A DNA stretch of 64,000 bases, from assembly GCA_000004985.1 (NCBI GenBank), contig GG738918.1. One strand, written 5' to 3'. The notes beneath the pieces were generated by a model, which was given only the letters and a program-made list of their open reading frames with translations, ran no database searches and was not told where the DNA came from. Below, in pieces: positions 7,075 to 40,220 of the stretch. A program made the translations under genes and the position numbers. This DNA comes from Naegleria gruberi. Taxonomy: Eukaryota. Position 1 is the first letter of the stretch. The number at the start of each line of letters is the position of its first letter.

Positions 7075-9525
7075 TCAATTTCCAGACAGGTTGTTAATGT
7101 GATTCTTATAGATAGAGATTAGTTCTAAAACTTGTCTAACTTCTTGGAAGTTGATAGTGTTGTGAGTAGTTGATGGATTTTCACGATTACTAAATGAGAG
7201 ATTTCTCCAATAATTTGCAACATTAACATCTGCACAATTTTGTTCCTTTCTAAACTTTTTCAAATTATAGAAGAGTCCAACAAGATTCCCTCTAAGGTAT
7301 TTCTTTGCAGTCTCATTGAATTGTTTGATATCTTGTTCAATAGATAAAAGTTGCTCATTGTAAAAAATGTTGATGGATTGGCAGAGTTCTATGTATATAT
7401 TTTTGAATTGTGAAAATGGTTTGGTGAAGAGGGGATTGAGATTGTTCACTAAATGATCTTCATTCACTTGATTAGAGAATTTACTTTGCATGATGGATGA
7501 AACTATTCTTGTATCATTATATTTTGATGAGGTCAACTCGTATGGAGGATTTTCTAGAACATACTTGTCCAGTTTTGAGACTAAATAATTGACATTACAC
7601 AATCTGAGAGAGGGAATATTTGAGTGAAGAGATGACTTCAATATAAAACATTTGTATGGTTGTTTGAAATTGACAAACTCTAGTCCTTCATATTCGAGGG
7701 GTGAGAACTTTTCAAAATCATTCACAAAATCCTGAAGGTCCAAAAATCCTATATCTGAATATGATTTAACAAAGTCGTTCCAATTATATTTTGTAGAAAA
7801 ATCAATCCAATTTTCATATTCCATCATAGATTCTAGATTTCTACTCCCACAATAAATAATTCTATTACTATTTTTCTGATAAATGAAGAAAAAGTTCAAC
7901 ATTTGATCTTCATGGGATGGATACTTCATTCCAATTCTTTCAAACAGATTTTCAAATTCCTGTTCAGTTTGACTCATATCAAAATTCTTGAGAATCCATT
8001 TGGAAATCCAATTGTCCTTTTCATCATCAAAGACAAACCTCCACTCACCAGAATAAAAGAAAAGCGAACACCTTATCCCAACTGGCCTTTCTAGAATTTG
8101 AATTGAGCTCATGTCAATATCTGAAAAATAGTCACTACCAACTTTTTCTAGTATGAAATTATAATCCATAGCATAGAATCTAGGAACACATACAGGAGTG
8201 TAAACTATCTTTCCATTATCATCAATATTATAAGATAGTACTGTTCCATTACATTCCAAGTAGGACCTACATTCTAAGAAAAGTTTACACAATTCTAAGG
8301 AAATATATTCCATATCACAATCTATCTTGAATAGTTGAGAACTATTAGGATTAAGATGCTCCTCTTTGGATCTAATAATTGGTGTCACATTCACTGAAAG
8401 TAATCTCATCAAGCTGTATGGACCGTATTTGTAGTGGTGTGAAAAGTCTAGTTCATAATTATGCTCTACAACCATTATTAATTCACTAAACAGTGGATTA
8501 TCCTTTTCAAAGCCTGAAGAATATGTATTCAGGAAGTTTTGAATACCCAATGAACTATTGCTTTCTGAGTTTTTACATTTGAAAAGGGCATCTTTGATAA
8601 TATTCTTCAGATCATCTTTTAATTGTTCCTTCCATGTCTTATAGAGTGCATCACTAATTTGTTTATACTCATTCCAAGAACTAAATGAATCAGTATGAAA
8701 TACAATGCTGTCATAGAGTTTGTTAGTTTCGGTATAATCATATATAATACCTGAATTAACAAATTGATAAGCATATTTCGAGTATCTAATACCATGAGCT
8801 AGGTTTTTCTTCACCTTCTTTAGAGTACTTTTCCTTTCACTTTCATCCTTGCAAAGTTTGTTCTCCAAAACATTCCAAAATCTAAATGCCTTATTAAAGC
8901 AATGATGAAGCTCGTGAAGGAATGAATTTTTAGTTCTAGAAATTCTCAAAAACCACAAACTCCAATGATGCCTCCATAATTTCATCTTTTCATCCTCAAA
9001 CAGAACAAATGATGAATTTGGTTGCAGAACAGATAGCATGAATATTGGCAATTGTAAATAAACATGGTCCACAAAGAATGAAGTTTCCATAATGTGCACT
9101 TCCATATCGTATTCCTTCTCTTCTAATTTACCCTCCTCATCATCACAATTACACTTAATAGAGCTTTTCAATAAATATTGTAAATTATTAGAATATCTCG
9201 TTTCATAATCAATACAATGAGAGTAAAAATCATCAACAATCATTATTAAATCAAAATCAGAATCGTTTACATTGGTTTTTGAAACTCTTGATCCGAACAC
9301 GTAAATTCCTCTAATCGAATCATCACGATATAAAACCTTGTCCTTCAACAAGCCTTCTTCAGAAATTGTAATAAAATTGCGAATATGATAAATTAATTCA
9401 TCACTTGAGAAGGGAAATTTAAATTGATTTTCATGGAAATGATGTGATTGCCAATATTGACTCGGTCCAGTACTCTCTTTATCATAACGGAAATTATTAA
9501 TGGTGCATTTTGGAAATTGTTGCAT
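7075..9525 (-). CDS. Large (816 aa) protein with an N-terminal Pol-beta/Cid1-GLD2-like nucleotidyltransferase motif and a ~600 aa uncharacterised C-terminal region.
   Basis: The N-terminus reads GIYVFGSRVSKTNVNDSDFDLIMIVDD, the [F/Y]GS...SD[FI]D[LI] signature of non-canonical poly(A) polymerases/TUTases and other Pol-beta-fold NTases. A candidate third acidic residue (YDMEVHIME) lies about 55 aa downstream. I recognise no other domain. Confidence 0.4.
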   Translation of the reverse strand: MQQFPKCTINNFRYDKESTGPSQYWQSHHFHENQFKFPFSSDELIYHIRNFITISEEGLLKDKVLYRDDSIRGIYVFGSRVSKTNVNDSDFDLIMIVDDFYSHCIDYETRYSNNLQYLLKSSIKCNCDDEEGKLEEKEYDMEVHIMETSFFVDHVYLQLPIFMLSVLQPNSSFVLFEDEKMKLWRHHWSLWFLRISRTKNSFLHELHHCFNKAFRFWNVLENKLCKDESERKSTLKKVKKNLAHGIRYSKYAYQFVNSGIIYDYTETNKLYDSIVFHTDSFSSWNEYKQISDALYKTWKEQLKDDLKNIIKDALFKCKNSESNSSLGIQNFLNTYSSGFEKDNPLFSELIMVVEHNYELDFSHHYKYGPYSLMRLLSVNVTPIIRSKEEHLNPNSSQLFKIDCDMEYISLELCKLFLECRSYLECNGTVLSYNIDDNGKIVYTPVCVPRFYAMDYNFILEKVGSDYFSDIDMSSIQILERPVGIRCSLFFYSGEWRFVFDDEKDNWISKWILKNFDMSQTEQEFENLFERIGMKYPSHEDQMLNFFFIYQKNSNRIIYCGSRNLESMMEYENWIDFSTKYNWNDFVKSYSDIGFLDLQDFVNDFEKFSPLEYEGLEFVNFKQPYKCFILKSSLHSNIPSLRLCNVNYLVSKLDKYVLENPPYELTSSKYNDTRIVSSIMQSKFSNQVNEDHLVNNLNPLFTKPFSQFKNIYIELCQSINIFYNEQLLSIEQDIKQFNETAKKYLRGNLVGLFYNLKKFRKEQNCADVNVANYWRNLSFSNRENPSTTHNTINFQEVRQVLELISIYKNHINNLSGN

Positions 9526-9745
9526 TTTTTTTTAATAATTAATTTCAATATTTTATTTAAGGAAAGATTACAACAAGTATTATACGATATTATTTAGAGA
9601 TGATAATTATTCTGTAAGGAATATTTAGGGGAGTGTTTTCAATAGTGAATTTTTCTTTTTAGAGGCGGAAATTAAAGACTTGAAAAATGGCGGGAAAACT
9701 ATTAAGGATTAGTTTTTGTGCAAATTATCCAAAAATAAGAAATGA

Positions 9746-11440
9746 TTGACAAATTACTTCGATATTTATCATGTGATCTATATCTTAGCTAGCTGTATCT
9801 CTCACAGGATATCATCTCTCGACCCGTCAATGTCCATTAGTATCATTAGAAAAAAAAACGAATCTTATATCATGAACGAAACCTTTCTCTACAACAATAC
9901 AGCCTTCTCTTCATGTCCCAGTTGGTTTCCTTATCACCTCGTCGACCCATCCACTCTATCTAATAACAATACACTCGATATGGAATGTCCTGATACAATT
10001 CTCGTTCCAATAACAAGTGGAATTTTATATGGATCTTATTTAATATTATTTTTAATTTGTTTAATTTTTCTAATTTGGAAGAGGAAGGCATCTACTATCA
10101 AGGCCAGATCGCCCGTCATTTTATCTTTTGGATTAGTTGCAAATTTTACCTTAGTTTCCCTAGCATTAATTCGGTGCATTGTTGGAAAAACTGATTTTCC
10201 ATGTTTTTTATTTTCGATATTTTACTTTATTTTAGGACCGTGTTTTGTGGTGCCGTCAATTATTAGAGGAATTGAACTGATTATTCAATATAAGGTCAAT
10301 TTATTGAGAGCTAAGAGTATTTCTAGATGTAATCTTTCGAATAATTATTCGACACAGGTGCAGGATGTTAAGAGTGATGTTGTGAGTGAGAAGACTGAAA
10401 CTCAATCAGAATGTGGAACTTCATATAAGGAAACTAGATCAGTACGAGTATTGACAACTTTGAATAGAATACTGCAGAGTGCTATATTTCATTTGTGTTT
10501 TACTTTATTCTTGTTGATATTTCATTTGGGCATTTGGTTATGTTCTGGGTTGATTGAAGATGGTTTCTATTCGAAACACAGATTTTTCATGACTAATGCC
10601 AGTATTTTGAGTGTTGGAGGATGTTATTCATCTACTGGAAGTTCGATTGCCATGGCTGTGTTTGTTGGATTATATTTTATCATTGACTTGATAATTAATA
10701 TTATATGTTTGACAATTGACAATGACACATTCAACATCAAGATTGGAAATCTAGGCATGACAGTAGTAAGAATACTATGTGGTATATTTTACCTTGTATT
10801 TTCACAAGTTCCAGTTTTAAGATCTACTGGCAGAATCATTCCTTCTATTTATGTATTTATCCTAAACTGTATTGTTGAACTAATTGTCACAATTCTCATT
10901 CCATCCATTAAAGATTGTATAGATAAGATGAAATACCAATCAAAATACAACCAATCAGAAATTGAATGTGTTTTAAATGACCAAAAACTTTTCAATATTT
11001 TAATTGATTTTTCAAGAAGAAGTTACAGCCCTGAAAGTGTTTTATTTTACAAAGATATTCAACATTACAAACAATTGGTGGCAAAGCTTGAAATGATGGA
11101 AAATGGAGCTTTTCAACATGTTGAGTCAATTAAGAATTTACGTGTGAAAATTACACGTTTCGTTCAGAATATTGTTCATGTTTATTTATGTGAAGGAAGT
11201 GTTAATGAATTGAATATTCCTAATTTGAAAATGAAGAAATTGGAATTGACCAACAAGATTGCTGCATGTATAGAATTTGAATCTAATAGATTTACCAGGG
11301 ATTTATTCGATTCAATCTTGGTAGAATCAATGCTCACTCTGATGGAAGTGTATCATCGATTGAAACAACAAAACCCCACCATACGACAATTCTCCCTACA
11401 TTGGAAAAATGATCAAGACAAGCTCAACAATTCACTGTAA
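9746..11440 (+). CDS. Seven-transmembrane receptor with a C-terminal RGS domain (7TM-RGS, AtRGS1-like architecture).
   Basis: Seven hydrophobic segments follow an N-terminal Cys-containing ectodomain (CPSWFPYHL..LDMECPDTILVPI). The C-terminal RGS domain reads SVLFYKDIQHYKQ..VYLCEGSVNELNIPNLK..LFDSILVESMLTLMEVYHRL. The likely true start is MNETF at about 9872. Confidence 0.7.
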   Translation: MTNYFDIYHVIYILASCISHRISSLDPSMSISIIRKKNESYIMNETFLYNNTAFSSCPSWFPYHLVDPSTLSNNNTLDMECPDTILVPITSGILYGSYLILFLICLIFLIWKRKASTIKARSPVILSFGLVANFTLVSLALIRCIVGKTDFPCFLFSIFYFILGPCFVVPSIIRGIELIIQYKVNLLRAKSISRCNLSNNYSTQVQDVKSDVVSEKTETQSECGTSYKETRSVRVLTTLNRILQSAIFHLCFTLFLLIFHLGIWLCSGLIEDGFYSKHRFFMTNASILSVGGCYSSTGSSIAMAVFVGLYFIIDLIINIICLTIDNDTFNIKIGNLGMTVVRILCGIFYLVFSQVPVLRSTGRIIPSIYVFILNCIVELIVTILIPSIKDCIDKMKYQSKYNQSEIECVLNDQKLFNILIDFSRRSYSPESVLFYKDIQHYKQLVAKLEMMENGAFQHVESIKNLRVKITRFVQNIVHVYLCEGSVNELNIPNLKMKKLELTNKIAACIEFESNRFTRDLFDSILVESMLTLMEVYHRLKQQNPTIRQFSLHWKNDQDKLNNSL

Positions 11441-11591
11441 TTAAGCGTAACAGGATTCGAAGAGATTGGAAACAAAAAACCTTGTTAAAAAAAGTAAAAA
11501 AAACCCTTAAATACTAACCATTCTCTAAGGAGCAAATTGAAGTTGTAAAGGAAGAAGTTATATTTGACAACATTTTCCAATTTCTTGATCC

Positions 11592-11826: not shown

Positions 11827-14800
11827 TTATTCTAAAAGTCTTCTTCTTCTATCGATATCATCATCCTCATCATCACTTGTAAAATTGCTAACATCATCCT
11901 CATCTTCCTCTTCATCCTCATCAGCTATTGCTGGTATTGACACTTCCTCAATATCTGCCAATAATTTAGCTTTAGTGAAAACTGTACCAATACCACGTCC
12001 AAAATATTCACAAACCAGAGAATAACCATCCAACTTCTTGGTATTAAGTTGCTTAAAGAAGGATTCGTGTTGTTCACTCGACTCTTCGAATTTTCTCTTT
12101 CTTTGGAGAATATCTCTGTGCTTATCAGAACAAACTCTACATTCACCTTCATTACCAACAAGGAGACATCTTTGATGGTATGAGTGATTACACATGAAAT
12201 GTACAGCAGGCAAGTCCAATTGAGCATTACAGAAAGTACAAGTGGTAGCTTGGAAAGTTTTGGCACTGGTTTGTAAATCGTAAATTTCCTTTCTCATTTG
12301 AGCAGTTTCAGTTTGGAATTCCTTGATCTTTTCTACATCTTCTCTTATCATTTCTTGTTCTTTTTGAATTTTAGAAATCAGATAGTCCTTTACAGAATAG
12401 AGTTTGGTCTTTTCATTCTTACCAAGAATTTGAACAACCAGTAATGGAGGTAAAATTTCATCCTTTTCAATCTTTTCTAATACAATAGCTAATTCTTCTT
12501 CAACATTATCATCCAATGTGGCAAAATATGTGAGAACTTGAACCCACAAATTTGGATCCTTGTCACCATATTGATTAACAGAGGCGATTACATTCTTGTA
12601 ATCACGTTGCTCCATATAATATTGGATAATATAATAGTGAAGACCCAAAGTATCATAAATCTTGAGTACACCTTCTTTAAAGTTTTGTGATTGGACAAGA
12701 ACAAGAACGTGCTCCTTATCATAGTTAGATTGTGGATGGTCGAGTGTATAAAGCAATCTATCTTTAAAGCTCAAATTGGCAATATCTGTGCTTGGTGGCT
12801 GAATTTCATATCTATCAGAAATGCCTTGAGTTTGCTCAAGTTCTGGTCTTTTCTTAGAATCAGTATCCAAATATTTAAGATAAAGTTCAATGAGCGTATT
12901 GTACACAACCTTGGAATGTGATGTATCTGGTCGAAGAGTTCTCCAAATAACATTTTCCAAAAATATCATTAACCAGTATTGATCCTTACTTGGGAAGCAA
13001 TGAATATATGACTCTGGTTTTGGTTTAGCATGTTCAATGTGTTGATTATTATACATATCTTCATATCCGGTAGTTTTAACAATTTGAGATTCAAGATTAG
13101 CAGATGATTGTTTCAAACCTAGAAGTACATTCAGAATACCCCCTTCTTTCTTCTTTTCTGCTTGGTTGCTTGAATCATTGGAGTTTGGTATAATTCTAAG
13201 CTTGTAATTATCAATGATTCTCTTTTGAGTTAACTTGATATCACTATCCAAAACTCTATTTGTTTCAGCAGGGTGAATTGGGAAATATTCTGTACACAAT
13301 CTTATGAGAGCGTTAGTAGTCTCTTTTGGTAAATGTGAAATGAGTGTTTTACCATAGGTTTTCAGATAACTTTCAGCTTCAGGTAAGGCAAGAGATTCAA
13401 TATATTTGAGCGCTCTTCTAAAGTTCTCTTTAGAATCAACCTTCTCGCCATTATCCTTGTCCAAATTATCTGTATCAAAGTCCTCCAAGTGAATCTTAAT
13501 GTACCAATCGTGTTGTTTGTGTTTCATGGCCAAAATGAGGGCATGTTCCTTGTAGCCGGCTTTTCTACAAACTCTAATAGCTGTCTCTACATCGTACATA
13601 AGCTTATCTTGCATACTGATAAACTTGTCGAGTTTTTCCTTTCTTTCATCCTTCAATTTGGTGTAACAGTTTAACAAGAGGGTTGTGTGATCAGAGGTGG
13701 CAAGACGTTTTTCGTGAAGGGTTTCAAGATATTCTGTAAGGTTACGAATTCTGTTTGCATCCAAGAATTTTCTGATAACATAGGATGGTTCCAATCTACC
13801 AATAGTTCTACAAAATTGTTTCATAGCTCCATCATAATCTTTCTTTGAATACAAGTGATCACCATATTGTTTTGAAATTTCAAACAAGTAATTACTGTCA
13901 AGTTGTTCACTATCAACTAAACTGATGGCAATCGAATAAAAGTTCTTTTGTAAAAGCAATTCCAACTTGGATTGGGTATCTTTTTCTTCCAAAAGGAACA
14001 TTTGTTGTTCAGATTTGTTTTCATCAATATTCGACAATAAAAAGACATTACCCCATTCTTGAAGAATATGTGTAATGTGTAATTTGTCACTCGAATATCT
14101 AAAGGCAATATACTTGTTTTTCAAATCATAAATAGTAATAACTTGTTGAGATTTGCTACTGGTTGTGTTAATATCTGAACTAATAACAATTAAATAATTT
14201 CTGAACCAATGTGACAAGATCTTTTTACCTTCAAAAGCAAAACAAGATCCTTTTCCTTCAGGTTTAAAGAACCAAACAGCAGATTTAGAAGAAACCACAA
14301 AATCTCCATCATTACTCAAAGTACTACATCCAACTTCACATCCAATAGTGTCATCTAAAATTACTTTTGATTGTTCAAGTGCTCTTTGTGATGTACTGCT
14401 ATTAGTATTAATAGAATATTTAAAAACTTGAGTAAGTGAACAACAGAATAAAGTATAATCATTAGGTGAATTACCATATCTCTTAAATCCTAATCCTGTT
14501 ATTCTCTCATTTGGAGCACCATCCAATAAAAACACTTTGTGTGATGACTTTCCTCCTTGTTTTGTAAAATCACCTTCAAATATAATAATTTTACCATTTC
14601 CTAAACCAAGTGCAATACAATTAAAATCTTGATTTGCTTCAAAACAACACACCGGATAAGGTTCCATATCTTTGATCTGACTAAATATCTTGATATCTCT
14701 TACTAATTGATATTGACCAAAACTTGTGTGACCTTCCTTTGTGTGTTCTTTATACTTGTCAAGAGAATAAATTTTCAATACATCCTGATAGGCTTCTCCA

Positions 14801-15126
14801 CCATCATCACCAACAACAACTAAACAATTAGATTTAGCAATATGTTTGATGTGATTAACTCTTGCTTCAAAGGCTTTACATTGACGTGTATTTAAATTTT
14901 TATCCATAACATGAAAAGTACCACGATTATCTCCGAATATAATATTACTTCTTCCGCTAGTACAACAAGTTACATTGGTCTGAGAGAAAAATTTTGATGA
15001 TTTCTCATCACTCACTGTATGCTTGTCAAAGAAGTTGAATTTCTTCCACATTTTTTTTTGATGAAAAGATTTTTTAGTTTTTAAAAATTGATGATCCCGA
15101 ATAGAATATGCAATTCTGTCGTTCAT
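11827..15126 (-). CDS. vps11: Vacuolar protein sorting 11 (HOPS/CORVET core subunit), with an N-terminal beta-propeller, an alpha-solenoid and a C-terminal RING-H2.
   Basis: CFAFEGKKILSHWFRNYLIVIS and GDHLYSKKDYDGAMKQFCRTIGRLEPSYVIRKFLDANRIRNLTEYLETLH are nearly identical to human VPS11. The C-terminal RING reads CTFCNAQLDLPAVHFMCNHSYHQRCL. The homologous start is probably MWKKFNFFDK (ATG at 15053). Confidence 0.9.
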   Translation of the reverse strand: MNDRIAYSIRDHQFLKTKKSFHQKKMWKKFNFFDKHTVSDEKSSKFFSQTNVTCCTSGRSNIIFGDNRGTFHVMDKNLNTRQCKAFEARVNHIKHIAKSNCLVVVGDDGGEAYQDVLKIYSLDKYKEHTKEGHTSFGQYQLVRDIKIFSQIKDMEPYPVCCFEANQDFNCIALGLGNGKIIIFEGDFTKQGGKSSHKVFLLDGAPNERITGLGFKRYGNSPNDYTLFCCSLTQVFKYSINTNSSTSQRALEQSKVILDDTIGCEVGCSTLSNDGDFVVSSKSAVWFFKPEGKGSCFAFEGKKILSHWFRNYLIVISSDINTTSSKSQQVITIYDLKNKYIAFRYSSDKLHITHILQEWGNVFLLSNIDENKSEQQMFLLEEKDTQSKLELLLQKNFYSIAISLVDSEQLDSNYLFEISKQYGDHLYSKKDYDGAMKQFCRTIGRLEPSYVIRKFLDANRIRNLTEYLETLHEKRLATSDHTTLLLNCYTKLKDERKEKLDKFISMQDKLMYDVETAIRVCRKAGYKEHALILAMKHKQHDWYIKIHLEDFDTDNLDKDNGEKVDSKENFRRALKYIESLALPEAESYLKTYGKTLISHLPKETTNALIRLCTEYFPIHPAETNRVLDSDIKLTQKRIIDNYKLRIIPNSNDSSNQAEKKKEGGILNVLLGLKQSSANLESQIVKTTGYEDMYNNQHIEHAKPKPESYIHCFPSKDQYWLMIFLENVIWRTLRPDTSHSKVVYNTLIELYLKYLDTDSKKRPELEQTQGISDRYEIQPPSTDIANLSFKDRLLYTLDHPQSNYDKEHVLVLVQSQNFKEGVLKIYDTLGLHYYIIQYYMEQRDYKNVIASVNQYGDKDPNLWVQVLTYFATLDDNVEEELAIVLEKIEKDEILPPLLVVQILGKNEKTKLYSVKDYLISKIQKEQEMIREDVEKIKEFQTETAQMRKEIYDLQTSAKTFQATTCTFCNAQLDLPAVHFMCNHSYHQRCLLVGNEGECRVCSDKHRDILQRKRKFEESSEQHESFFKQLNTKKLDGYSLVCEYFGRGIGTVFTKAKLLADIEEVSIPAIADEDEEEDEDDVSNFTSDDEDDDIDRRRRLLE

Positions 15127-25117: not shown

Positions 25118-25417
25118 ATGGTCAACTGCCCCAAGACGATCAATGCCTATTGTGTCAAGTGTAAAACACATAAAGAACACAAAGTTTCACAATACAAGGC
25201 AGGTAAAACAAGACGTACAGCTAAAGGTCAAAGATTTTATGTCATTAAACAGAAAGGATATGGTGGACAGACAATGCCAATCTTTCACAAGAAGGCAAAA
25301 ACCACCAAAAAGATTGTTTTGAAATTGTATTGTAAAGATTGTAAAAGATGTAATCAGAGATGTTTGAAAAGATGTAAACATTTTGAGATTGGTGGAAGAA
25401 AGAAGAGTGAAATGTAA
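25118..25417 (+). CDS. rpl36a: Ribosomal protein eL42 (L44e/RPL36A), unusually divergent.
   Basis: MVNCPKT...KVSQYKAGK...[25 protein letters not shown]...[10 protein letters not shown] matches the eL42 zinc-ribbon protein. The normally invariant stretch SLFAQGKRRYDRKQSG reads [17 protein letters not shown] here. Confidence 0.8.
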
Positions 25418-25708
25418 AATGTGGAATTGGAGAAATATAATGGAGATTTTAGAGTGCTTTGGATATGAAATTGTGTTATTCGAAATAGTGGAAATTGCAT
25501 TCGAATGCAATTTAATATTTGGAGAAAATGATTCATCAGAATTAGGATCATTGAAATTAGTAAACACTAATTGAATCAATTTCAAAAACTTATAATTCCT
25601 CTTCTAAGCCTAATCCAAATTTGTTAATTCTACATTTTTAACACTTTAATACTTTAGAATATTTCCAACCGAATCATTCTAAACTCAGAAATTAAACTCA
25701 AAAAGAAA

Positions 25709-27338
25709 ATGAAGATCCCCATCGAATCAATTTGGAAACAATCTTTCAAACAGTCTCAAACTCAATTTCCCAAACTCAGTGGATTAGGTCCAGAGGTGGT
25801 AAATTTCATTCATTTTAAATTATTCGAAATAATGTTTTTTGTTATTTAAGGATGTTTGTGTTGTGGGAGGAGGTGTATTTGGCTTACAAACAGCATTGAA
25901 ATTAGTGGAGAAGGGTAAGAAGGTTGCAATTGTTGAAAGTGGACAAGTTGGTTCTGGAGTTTCGAATAACACAACAGCTAAGGTTTCTGCACTTCATTCC
26001 ATTATTTATTCGAAAATTGAAAAGAAATTTAATAGAAGTGTTTCCTCCCAATATGCCCAAATGAACATGGCAGGCGTGAGAGAAATGGGAAATACTATCA
26101 AGAAGTATGGTATCGAATGTGATTGGACTAAATCAGATTCGTATACTGTTGCCCTTTCAGATAGCGAATTGAGAATTGTTCAAGATGAAATTGACGCTGC
26201 CAATCATGCTGGTCTATACGGAGTAGATTACATCTATCCAGATCATTTAAAAGAAATACCATTTCCAAATAAGGGAGCCATTCGTCTAAAAGATCAATAT
26301 GTCTTCAACTCATTTGCCTATTGCCAAGGTTTAGCCAAAGCATTAGAAAAGAGTGGTGTCTTTATTTATGAGAATTCTCGTGTGCATGGTGTAGAATATG
26401 CCTCTCCGCACATTATTTCAACCAATGAAGGAAATGTAATGGCAGATAAAGTTGTCATTGCAACACATTTACCAATTTTAGATAGATCTGGACACTTCTC
26501 AGTGATTGAAGCACAATCTTCCTATTGTGTTGCATTCAAAATGAAAGAAGGAGTCAAAGCACCTATTGGAAACTATATAACTATTGGAAAGTGCGACGAA
26601 TTTGGAATCAAGTCAATCAGAAGTGCAGAAAATGGTAAAATCCTCATTATTGCTGGTAATAGCAACAAGTGTGGTGAATTCCATCCAACAGGAAACAGCC
26701 AAGATATTTACGATAATTTAATCGAATTTGGTTTTAATAATTTCAAAGTTGAAAAGGCAATTTGTGGTTGGTCAGCTCTTGATTACTTTACTGCAGATAC
26801 GATTCCATACTTTGGATTATTGCATCATGGTATTAATACTGTTTATACGGCAACTGGTTGTAGAAAGTGGGGTTTCTCCAATTTGAGTGCTGCCTCATTA
26901 ATCGTTTCAGATATGATATGCGAAACTCTTGATCCAGACACAACTGGCCTGTGGTCTCAAACATTCGATGCCAGAAGATGGGATCTCACCAAATCAACCC
27001 TCTCAATGGTCAAATTCCAATCCAATGTTGCCAAACATTTCGTCGCCACCAGAATTCGTGATGTTATTAAGGCAAGAACAATAGATGAATTGGGAATTGA
27101 AGATGGTGGAATTTGTAAACAAGGATTAGAAACAATAGCTGCATATAGAGATGGTAAGGGTGAATATCATCTCTTCCATCCAACATGTACTCATTTGGGA
27201 TGTCATTTGGATTATAATAATGCTGAAAAGACATTTGACTGTAGTTGTCATGGAAGTAGATTTAAGGCAACTGATGGAGAAGTAATTCATGGACCAGCTG
27301 TGAAGCCATTAACTCCATTACCTTTGAATAAATTGTAA
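25709..27338 (+). CDS. FAD-dependent oxidoreductase (DAO family) fused to a C-terminal Rieske [2Fe-2S] domain, a bacterial YhfW-like architecture. It has two exons, with an intron at 25799-25850.
   Basis: The N-terminal Rossmann motif reads [23 protein letters not shown]. The C-terminal Rieske boxes read CTHLGCHL and CSCHGSRF. Exon 1 (ATG at 25709, [13 protein letters not shown]...GLGPEV) joins through GTAAAT...TTTAAG to DVCVVGGG in frame. The ORF-track start at 25839 is a TTG. Confidence 0.7.
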
Positions 27339-27764: not shown

Positions 27765-28580
27765 ATGGATCCAAAGAAGAAGGGTGAATTATTAGCCCCA
27801 ACTTTTGACAAACTTCAAAAGTTTTCTGAAATGATTACAGCTGCCCTATTCACAGCTCCAATTCATTGTCAGATATATAAACAAAAACTTAGACAAGCTG
27901 CTGAGGTGGAGAGAACAGTCGAGTCTGAGAATCAGGTACAATTGGTTTCTGCCTCCTCACCAACACCAACCACTAATCTTTTATCGACACCATCAGGTTT
28001 ATCAGGTGGAAGTGTGAGTTCTCCAGTGTTGGCTGGTACCTCTCCATTGATTGTTGGTGTTTCCACGTTGAATATTACTAGTGGTGATGATGGTGCTTCT
28101 TCTAATAATAATTCGGCAACATCACCTTCATCTTCATCTTCTACAACAACAACAAATAATTTGCAACCTTCTACAACAACAACATCAGCATCAGCATCAA
28201 CAACAACAGAAGTTGTAGCAAATAGTGATGAAAAGTTAGTTGAGAATAGTTTGAATGGTGGTACCACCACAGTAGAGGCCTCTGCAACAACAACTCCTTC
28301 TATTACTACTACAACAACAACAACAACAACAGCAGCAAATATTGTTGAAGAAGAAGAAGATAAATTTGAGGCTAGAAAAATTGAGGTCGAAGTTGATTGG
28401 GAGAGTTTTAACGAATTGTTTAATACATTGTTTAATGAGGGAGCTCCTGAGGTGATTGATACAATTTTGAATTCATTCCTTTCAAAGTCTTGTGCTGCCT
28501 CTCTGATTGGTACTTTAATATCACAATACTGTAAACCACCACAAAATCGTAAGTTATTTTCTAATAATTGGTTCATGTGA
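27765..28580 (+). CDS. Hypothetical Ser/Thr-rich low-complexity protein (poly-T and poly-S tracts).
   Basis: It is a long ORF with ordinary codon usage and homopolymeric T/S runs. The antisense ORF 27932..28576 is a composition artefact. Confidence 0.4.
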   Translation: MDPKKKGELLAPTFDKLQKFSEMITAALFTAPIHCQIYKQKLRQAAEVERTVESENQVQLVSASSPTPTTNLLSTPSGLSGGSVSSPVLAGTSPLIVGVSTLNITSGDDGASSNNNSATSPSSSSSTTTTNNLQPSTTTTSASASTTTEVVANSDEKLVENSLNGGTTTVEASATTTPSITTTTTTTTTAANIVEEEEDKFEARKIEVEVDWESFNELFNTLFNEGAPEVIDTILNSFLSKSCAASLIGTLISQYCKPPQNRKLFSNNWFM

Positions 28581-40036: not shown

Positions 40037-40155
40037 TGGCTACGGCCATATCACGATGAATGCACCTCATCCCGTCCGATTTGAGAAGTTAAGCATCGTA
40101 GAGCCACATCAGTACTGAGGTTGGAGACAACTTGGGAACCTGTGGTGCTGTAGTC
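40037..40155 (+). rRNA. 5S ribosomal RNA gene (nuclear type), followed by a TTTTT Pol III terminator.
   Basis: GGCTACGGCCATATCACGATGAATGCACCTCATCCCGTCCGATTTGAGAAGTTAAGCATCGTAGAGCCACATCAGTACTGAGGTTGGAGACAACTTGGGAACCTGTGGTGCTGTAGTC contains the universal 5S blocks (GGCCATA.CAC, CCCGTCCGAT.TG, GAAGTTAAGC, AGTAC, GGGAAC). The terminal helix I is complementary and a T5 run follows immediately. The ends are accurate to about 3 nt. Confidence 0.85.
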
Positions 40156-40220
40156 TTTTTATGATTATTTATTGAATTCAAATTACAATTCAAAAATGTT
40201 GAAATATAATTATTTCATTG

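Follow-up and report, generated by a model that had tools for sequence, protein, structure and literature searches.

YhfW of Bacillus subtilis is described as a flavin adenine dinucleotide (FAD)-linked oxidoreductase with a C-terminal Rieske domain, and its loss lowered metabolites of the tricarboxylic acid cycle and induced nadABC (PMC7317962). In this study a gene for a protein of this type was investigated, which is located between positions 25709 and 27338 of a stretch of 64,000 nucleotides from contig GG738918.1 of Naegleria gruberi (GenBank assembly GCA_000004985.1). This whole stretch is referred to as the window. The prokaryotic YhfW-type family is presumably CDD entry cd03477 ('Rieske_YhfW_C'). 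The locus (NAEGRDRAFT_74818) is likely a resident nuclear gene of N. gruberi with two exons, coding for a YhfW-type FAD-Rieske oxidoreductase of 525 amino acids that belongs to a eukaryote-only subclade. The nearest database protein was the N. gruberi entry XP_002670156.1 / NAEGRDRAFT_74818 / D2W0D3, encoded on a 222-kb scaffold. The gene and its domain architecture are already present in public databases, and the family is known, yet uncharacterised. In the literature on locus tags, accessions, CDD names and Naegleria lateral gene transfer, nothing on this DAO-Rieske gene was found.

Prokaryotic YhfW-type proteins, including those of Bacillus, show the same order of the two domains as the N. 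gruberi protein and a similar length (about 500-530 amino acids). They are collinear with it over residues ~6-517, and identities were 30-33% to Bacillus species and at most 37% to Actinomycetota among the matches listed. For this comparison relatives from Bacillus species served as proxy for B. subtilis YhfW; Bacillus suaedaesalsae, B. pinisoli and Bacillus sp. Xin1 were 31-32% identical to the N. gruberi protein (tblastn). The invariant FAD and Rieske motifs and the conserved DARRWD linker are shared as well. Thus, the architecture proposed by the first-pass annotation, a DAO-family FAD domain followed by a C-terminal Rieske [2Fe-2S] domain, was borne out by the Pfam matches (Table 1) and by the full-length collinearity. 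In contrast to the YhfW-type proteins, the Naegleria protein falls into a separate subclade containing only eukaryotes (bootstrap 100/100), and its gene is nuclear and contains a spliceosomal-type intron. A further difference was seen in Rieske box II, which reads CSCHGS in the three Naegleria species and in the environmental orthologue P0003, and CPCHGS in nearly all other members, eukaryotic or prokaryotic.

The cluster ligands C476, H478, C494 and H497 and the disulfide pair C481/C496 were invariant among 30 homologues. The AlphaFold (AF2) model was confident, with a predicted local distance difference test score of 92.3 and a predicted template modelling (TM) score of 0.92, and has a long helix at residues 409-437 in the linker. 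For the DAO half, the best folds in the PDB were glycine oxidase (4ysh, E=3e-23), sarcosine oxidase beta, L-amino-acid deaminase, D-arginine dehydrogenase and L-proline dehydrogenase. The FAD fold is shared with the amine-oxidising flavoenzymes ThiO, sarcosine oxidase beta, L-amino-acid deaminase and D-arginine dehydrogenase at Foldseek E-values of about 1e-21 to 1e-23 and target-normalised TM-scores of 0.64-0.82 for the named matches. However, identity to these enzymes is just 12-20%, the matches span about 400 of the 525 residues, and none of the matched solved structures carries a fused Rieske domain. The best partial matches in NCBIfam were L-pipecolate oxidase AmaA and an aminophosphonate oxidoreductase, and no model reached its cutoff.

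For the Rieske domain (residues ~463-520) the best sequence matches were Rieske subunits of the cytochrome b6f and bc1 complexes and arsenite oxidase AioB (5cxm, E=4e-10; PetC, E=7e-13). The b6f/bc1 subunits (PetC, QcrA) and AioB have the same CxHxGC...CxCHGS motifs including the disulfide pair. In contrast to PetC and QcrA, the N. gruberi protein lacks a membrane anchor and a partner cytochrome b, and its Rieske domain is fused to a flavoenzyme. An assignment as bc1/b6f Rieske subunit was rejected, since the scores remained below cutoff (48.3 bits for the PetC model with a cutoff of 250; 41.7 for the proteobacterial Rieske model with a cutoff of 97.4) and the domain is fused to a soluble flavoenzyme. 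Phe501, following CxCHGS-x, is nearly invariant in DAO-Rieske proteins; the equivalent position is taken by a hydrogen-bonding Tyr in bc1 and b6f. An assignment as alpha subunit of a Rieske non-heme iron oxygenase was also rejected: no Pfam oxygenase catalytic domain was found, and the Rieske domain lies at the C-terminus, with just seven residues behind it. Rieske oxygenases of PAO/TIC55 type are known from Naegleria and were earlier proposed to be horizontally acquired (PMC6898599, PMC3087521). They are Rieske proteins of Naegleria too, but combine the Rieske domain with a PAO-type non-heme-iron oxygenase, have no FAD domain and represent an unrelated family. The DAO-Rieske gene is not mentioned in these two papers.

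Regarding the function, the protein is most likely an amine-type dehydrogenase that would pass electrons from FAD to its own Rieske cluster. The FAD domain would dehydrogenate a C-N bond of a small amine or amino-acid-like substrate, which is proposed because the closest structural relatives of the DAO half do so. The fused [2Fe-2S] cluster would then re-oxidise the reduced FAD in single-electron steps and hand the electrons to an external acceptor. Unlike amine oxidases, the N. gruberi protein probably gives its electrons to this iron-sulfur cluster and not to O2. A cytosolic location is probable because an N-terminal extension compared with the bacterial homologues is missing.

The gene model is summarised in Table 1. 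Exon 1 encodes a conserved N-terminal segment, S-x-W ... FP-L-G, ahead of the FAD fold, in which W9 is nearly invariant among the homologues. In exon 2 no in-frame ATG is present ahead of the GxGxxG motif, which starts five codons in; hence, an upstream exon is required. With the intron retained, an in-frame TAA would follow at 25847. After its removal, the junction GPEV|DVCVVGGG aligns without gaps to the proteins of N. fowleri and N. lovaniensis and to the intronless environmental orthologue P0003. The exon 1 peptide matches the N-termini of the same three proteins (N. fowleri: MKLPIGSIWRK...GNGPEV|DVC), and those of bacterial homologues more loosely. The intron has a guanine-cytosine (GC) content of 15%, the exons one of 37%. 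GT-AG boundaries, a frame break on retention and a conserved peptide on removal were all found, and the first exon of 30 codons and the GT-AG intron of 52 nucleotides described before are thereby supported by the sequence. A contig with 99% identity (L091, protein P0001) proved to be genomic and to come from a second N. gruberi-like strain, and the intron is present there. Its use as a transcript showing the spliced junction was rejected, as the contig is genomic and carries the intron.

Table 1 Features of the DAO-Rieske gene and other genes annotated in the window
Feature	Positions	Strand	Details
Exon 1	25709..25798	+	ATG at 25709 and 29 codons (30 in total)
Intron	25799..25850	+	52 nucleotides, phase 0, GTAAAT...TTTAAG
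Exon 2	25851..27338	+	residues 31-525 and TAA stop (27336-27338)
DAO-family FAD-dependent oxidoreductase domain, residues 31-384	25851..26912	+	Pfam PF01266, E=3.3e-40, profile 1-352 of 353
GxGxxG dinucleotide-binding motif, G36-G41	25866-25883	+	G36, G38 and G41 invariant
Conserved helical linker, residues 385-456, DARRWD motif	26913..27128	+	R406 invariant; D403 and W407 nearly invariant
Rieske [2Fe-2S] domain, residues 457-518	27129..27314	+	Pfam PF00355, E=5.5e-13
Rieske box I CTHLGC	27186-27203	+	sequence motif
Rieske box II CSCHGS	27240-27257	+	sequence motif
eL42/L44e ribosomal protein gene (separate, complete, single-exon)	25118..25417	+	Pfam Ribosomal_L44
VPS11 orthologue	11923-15057	-	85% identical to N. 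fowleri over 1050 amino acids, single alignment
5S ribosomal RNA gene	40038-40156	+	Rfam RF00001, 106.5 bits, full length

Among the relatives the introns differ in position. The N. fowleri gene (L001, 6001-7706) has a single intron of 119 nucleotides, which is in phase 1, splits the Gly codon preceding P-E-V and lies 11 nucleotides upstream of the N. gruberi site. In the gene on the environmental contig L095 (5667-7221), an intron of about 25 nucleotides interrupts the third Gly codon of the GxGxxG motif, 22 nucleotides downstream of the N. gruberi position. The genes of P0003 (contig L002) and P0004 (contig L003) are intronless. Since three positions within about 35 nucleotides are used in three lineages and none in two others, the introns are lineage-specific, and the positions indicate that the N. 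gruberi intron was gained or shifted after the split of N. gruberi and N. fowleri.

The GC content at third codon positions (GC3) was 0.27 for the DAO-Rieske gene and 0.17-0.32 for the other long open reading frames (ORFs) of the window. Its relative synonymous codon usage (RSCU) correlated with that of the pooled other ORFs of the window at r=0.944, the other ORFs themselves giving 0.71-0.96. The eL42 gene adjoins 291 nucleotides upstream. In N. fowleri, the gene next upstream of the DAO-Rieske orthologue is VPS11. The VPS11 orthologue of N. gruberi, which appears to be intronless, was found about 10.6 kb from the DAO-Rieske gene and inverted relative to the N. fowleri arrangement; both the distance and the inversion indicate a local rearrangement. 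Comparison with strain L091 revealed 100% identity in exon 1 and a deletion of three nucleotides in the intron as the sole indel of the gene. The 20 synonymous and four non-synonymous changes in exon 2 indicate purifying selection. Thus, the host-matching codon usage claimed by the first-pass annotation was confirmed by GC3 and RSCU, and its view of a resident eukaryotic gene agrees with the eL42 flank and with the VPS11 neighbourhood as in N. fowleri.

The distribution of the family was examined by profile and genome searches. An exhaustive HMMER search yielded 1248 cluster representatives at E<=1e-30. At least 597 loci were confirmed among the first 600 pattern matches of a species-level scan of prokaryote genomes; they span Actinomycetota, Bacillota (Bacillus, Paenibacillus), Cyanobacteria, Planctomycetota, Acidobacteriota, Alphaproteobacteria and methanogenic and halophilic Archaea. 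With tblastn against 80 named prokaryote loci, residues ~6-517 were covered at E-values of 1e-70 to 1e-94. The best prokaryote identity to the N. gruberi protein was 37% for named genomes, among the matches listed, and 39% for database proteins on contigs of megabase size.

Higher identities were found with eukaryotes and environmental sequences. The proteins of N. fowleri and N. lovaniensis were 60% identical to that of N. gruberi. P0003 followed with 57%; the other ORFs of its contig are acidic and of low complexity, and a Shine-Dalgarno sequence is absent there. For L095, with Ras and G-alpha neighbour genes, identity was 49%, and for P0004, with an apparently eukaryote-type PEBP neighbour, 45%. 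More distant are P0006, for which the alignments gave 41-43%, P0007 with 39-41%, encoded next to a RasGEF gene on a TARA contig, and the chytrid and MMETSP proteins (38-41%). The data sets of the close environmental relatives are ERZ27315067 for P0003, ERR14790941 for P0004, SRR22387979 for L095 and SRR32315873 for P0006. Named eukaryotes detected by profile search were Mesostigma viride with three paralogues, Chlorochromonas (Ochromonas) danica, one MMETSP transcript and the Chytridiomycota Kappamyces sp. JEL0680, Clydaea and Lobulomyces. Further named eukaryotes were added neither by a Naegleria-centred third profile search nor by the names of the top new HMMER hits. Other members lie on long metagenome contigs next to genes for Gemin2/SIP1, V-ATPase D, proteasome and Nop53 proteins. 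On the contig with the proteasome and Nop53 neighbours (L010) two DAO-Rieske genes are arranged in tandem (8001-9605 and 9943-11556), the second being split by a short intron. A PEBP gene directly follows the DAO-Rieske gene on L003 (1723-2250; the contig of P0004) and on L095 (7298-7858), both low-GC environmental eukaryote contigs. This microsynteny is kept between these two contigs and is not common to Naegleria.

For the phylogeny 252 proteins, comprising all hits and the ORFs from 31 named prokaryote loci, were aligned and trimmed to 492 columns. All 19 labelled eukaryotes were united in one clade of 63 sequences with a bootstrap support of 100/100, from which the 39 labelled prokaryotes were all absent. 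Its named members are three Naegleria species, three chytrids, Mesostigma and Chlorochromonas; the labelled eukaryotes also include the MMETSP transcript and environmental contigs with eukaryotic neighbour genes. The two basal members inspected, L093 and L094, look like mRNAs: their start contexts are A-rich, AATAAA or TGTAA occurs close to the stop, and a Shine-Dalgarno sequence is lacking. Furthermore, no best BLAST hit inside the clade was obtained for any of the 80 named prokaryote loci, which gave a median of 312 bits to the clade compared with 502 outside. With the DAO half alone the eukaryote clade was recovered in 48/50 replicates, and with linker and Rieske domain the labelled eukaryotes were split from the labelled prokaryotes in 40/50. 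Hence, there is no sign of different histories of the two halves. The Rieske domain alone (73 columns) gave this split in 3/50 replicates and is too short to resolve it.

Within the clade, Naegleria and P0003 grouped with 100/100; the support was 68 after adding P0004 and 67 after adding P0006. Both major subgroups include chytrids: Kappamyces belongs to group I (support 100), Clydaea and Lobulomyces to group II (support 43). The most frequent sister of the eukaryote clade were three long-branched Alphaproteobacteria (26/100 replicates), and the prokaryote backbone was without resolution. An alphaproteobacterial (mitochondrial) sister group is not claimed, given this support and the long branch.

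Several points weigh against the reading of the locus as a spliced gene for a YhfW-type oxidoreductase of a eukaryote-only subclade. The tree is a neighbour-joining tree based only on Kimura distances, with 100 bootstraps. Among the 63 clade members, 44 are unlabelled metagenome or transcriptome proteins, most of them on mRNA-like contigs of 1.6-2 kb, which were assumed to be eukaryotic. The distribution among eukaryotes is under-sampled, because genes with more than a few introns are not recovered by metagenome gene callers and relatives are lost at the word prefilter of the homologue search. The splicing of 25799-25850 is something we infer from sequence, and substrate, electron acceptor and localisation were all arrived at by inference too. 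A conserved gene neighbourhood in prokaryotes, which could point to a function, was not detected: among 133 ORFs flanking the 80 loci no Pfam family occurred more than twice. Finally, no defined reaction is known for any member of the family, and the B. subtilis yhfW mutant showed only indirect metabolic phenotypes (PMC7317962).

Other explanations have to be compared with this reading, the first being the deposited record itself. XP_002670156.1 (561 amino acids, P0121) joins the first 66 codons of eL42 (donor 25316) to the acceptor at 25850 and bypasses the true exon 1 of the DAO-Rieske gene. If it was right, the locus would code for an eL42-DAO-Rieske fusion with an intron of 535 nucleotides (25316-25850); a GT does exist at 25316, and the acceptor is common to both models. 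However, the Pfam profile Ribosomal_L44 is matched over 1-76 of 76 positions in the ORF 25118-25417, which ends with a stop after the whole domain, and only over 1-52 of 76 in the public model, where the second zinc-binding Cys pair is lost. The fusion also omits the exon with the peptide conserved in N. fowleri, N. lovaniensis, P0003 and bacteria, and the L44 segment was found in no orthologue, which makes it scarcely credible. Because of the complete L44 domain in the upstream ORF and the conserved exon 1 peptide, the two-exon model is the correct one and better than the RefSeq model, and XP_002670156.1 / D2W0D3 should be split into an eL42 and a DAO-Rieske gene. That the region is bacterial contamination or an assembly artefact, as might be thought from the bacterial-type domain architecture, has a practically negligible probability. 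The intron, the GC content of 37%, the host codon usage and eukaryotic genes on both sides on one contig argue against it, as do the orthologues that N. fowleri and N. lovaniensis carry on large scaffolds and the same locus with its intron in the independent assembly of the N. gruberi-like strain (L091). Two chytrid entries, Clydaea vesicula KAJ3200769.1 (P0151) and Lobulomyces angularis KAJ3379885.1 (P0230), are named '40s ribosomal protein L44e', and only DAO and Rieske domains are found inside. The chimeric N. gruberi record is the most likely source of this name.

Regarding the origin of the gene, the first-pass annotation had called the family essentially prokaryotic and had suggested horizontal acquisition by Naegleria. 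By numbers the family is indeed prokaryotic, but it is not confined to prokaryotes. A direct transfer of a yhfW-like gene from a bacterium into the Naegleria lineage, followed by domestication with intron and host codon usage, would fit this predominance (at least 597 loci; 1248 representatives) and the lineage-specific introns, which are expected of a gene arriving intronless. Within the searches run, an orthologue was also met in no other named discobid proteome. It is nevertheless very unlikely: the nearest relatives are eukaryotic (57, 49 and 45% identity compared with at most 39% for prokaryotes), the labelled eukaryotes form one clade with full support, and no bacterial group is specifically sister, the best being the weakly placed, long-branched Alphaproteobacteria. 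Absence from other eukaryotes, as expected of a Naegleria-specific transfer, was not observed, since chytrids, Mesostigma, Chlorochromonas danica and an MMETSP organism carry the gene. At the other extreme, the subclade could descend vertically from the last eukaryotic common ancestor, possibly via the mitochondrial endosymbiont, with loss in most lineages. The eukaryotes are monophyletic and comprise four supergroup-level lineages (Discoba, Fungi, Streptophyta, Stramenopiles), the two internal groups each include a chytrid, which is compatible with an old duplication, and Alphaproteobacteria were the most frequent single bootstrap sister. Moreover, P0023 and P0042 carry long Ala/Arg/Ser-rich N-terminal extensions resembling organelle-targeting peptides. 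On the other hand, the distribution is very patchy, with only a few named species in the EukProt, NCBI and MMETSP sources, the internal topology deviates from the species tree with weak support (group II, 43/100), the alphaproteobacterial sister is without support and on a long branch, and a single ancient transfer with eukaryote-to-eukaryote spread fits as well. Vertical descent is therefore a tentative possibility. Broad vertical presence together with eukaryote monophyly had been named beforehand as evidence against transfer; monophyly was found, broad presence was not. Rather unlikely, too, is the more specific idea of an ancient eukaryotic or mitochondrial-endosymbiont enzyme, kept as a relict in heteroloboseans, chytrids, Mesostigma and chrysophytes, which would act as an amine dehydrogenase feeding a respiratory-chain-type acceptor via its Rieske centre.

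As its closest relatives are eukaryotic, the gene is judged not to be a Naegleria-specific recent bacterial import. From its position in the eukaryote-only clade it follows that a bacterial origin, if any, is old and not specific for Naegleria, and that the gene was passed on within eukaryotes already before Naegleria radiated. Judged by these sequence relationships, Naegleria obtained the gene from within the eukaryotes, be it by vertical descent or by transfer between eukaryotes. Of the proposed horizontal acquisition there remains as plausible an ancient bacterium-to-eukaryote transfer at the base of the eukaryote clade, for which no donor lineage was identified. The subclade may have started with one ancient bacterial transfer or in the eukaryote ancestor.

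Some further features of the window were recorded. Downstream of the DAO-Rieske gene, the ORF 27765-28580 (+) encodes 271 amino acids with low-complexity runs of Thr, Ser and Asn and has no Pfam match. Besides the 5S ribosomal RNA gene (Table 1), tRNA genes were searched for with ARAGORN, and none was detected anywhere in the 64-kb window.

In general, the biological significance of the locus is modest. What has been gained is a correction of the gene model, the tracing of an annotation error and the assignment of the gene to a eukaryote-only clade; the gene should not count as a Naegleria-specific bacterial acquisition. The differing introns exemplify, for protists with few introns, the turnover of introns at the 5' end of a gene. 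The patchy yet monophyletic eukaryote clade represents a small test case for ancient origin with loss versus eukaryote-to-eukaryote transfer.

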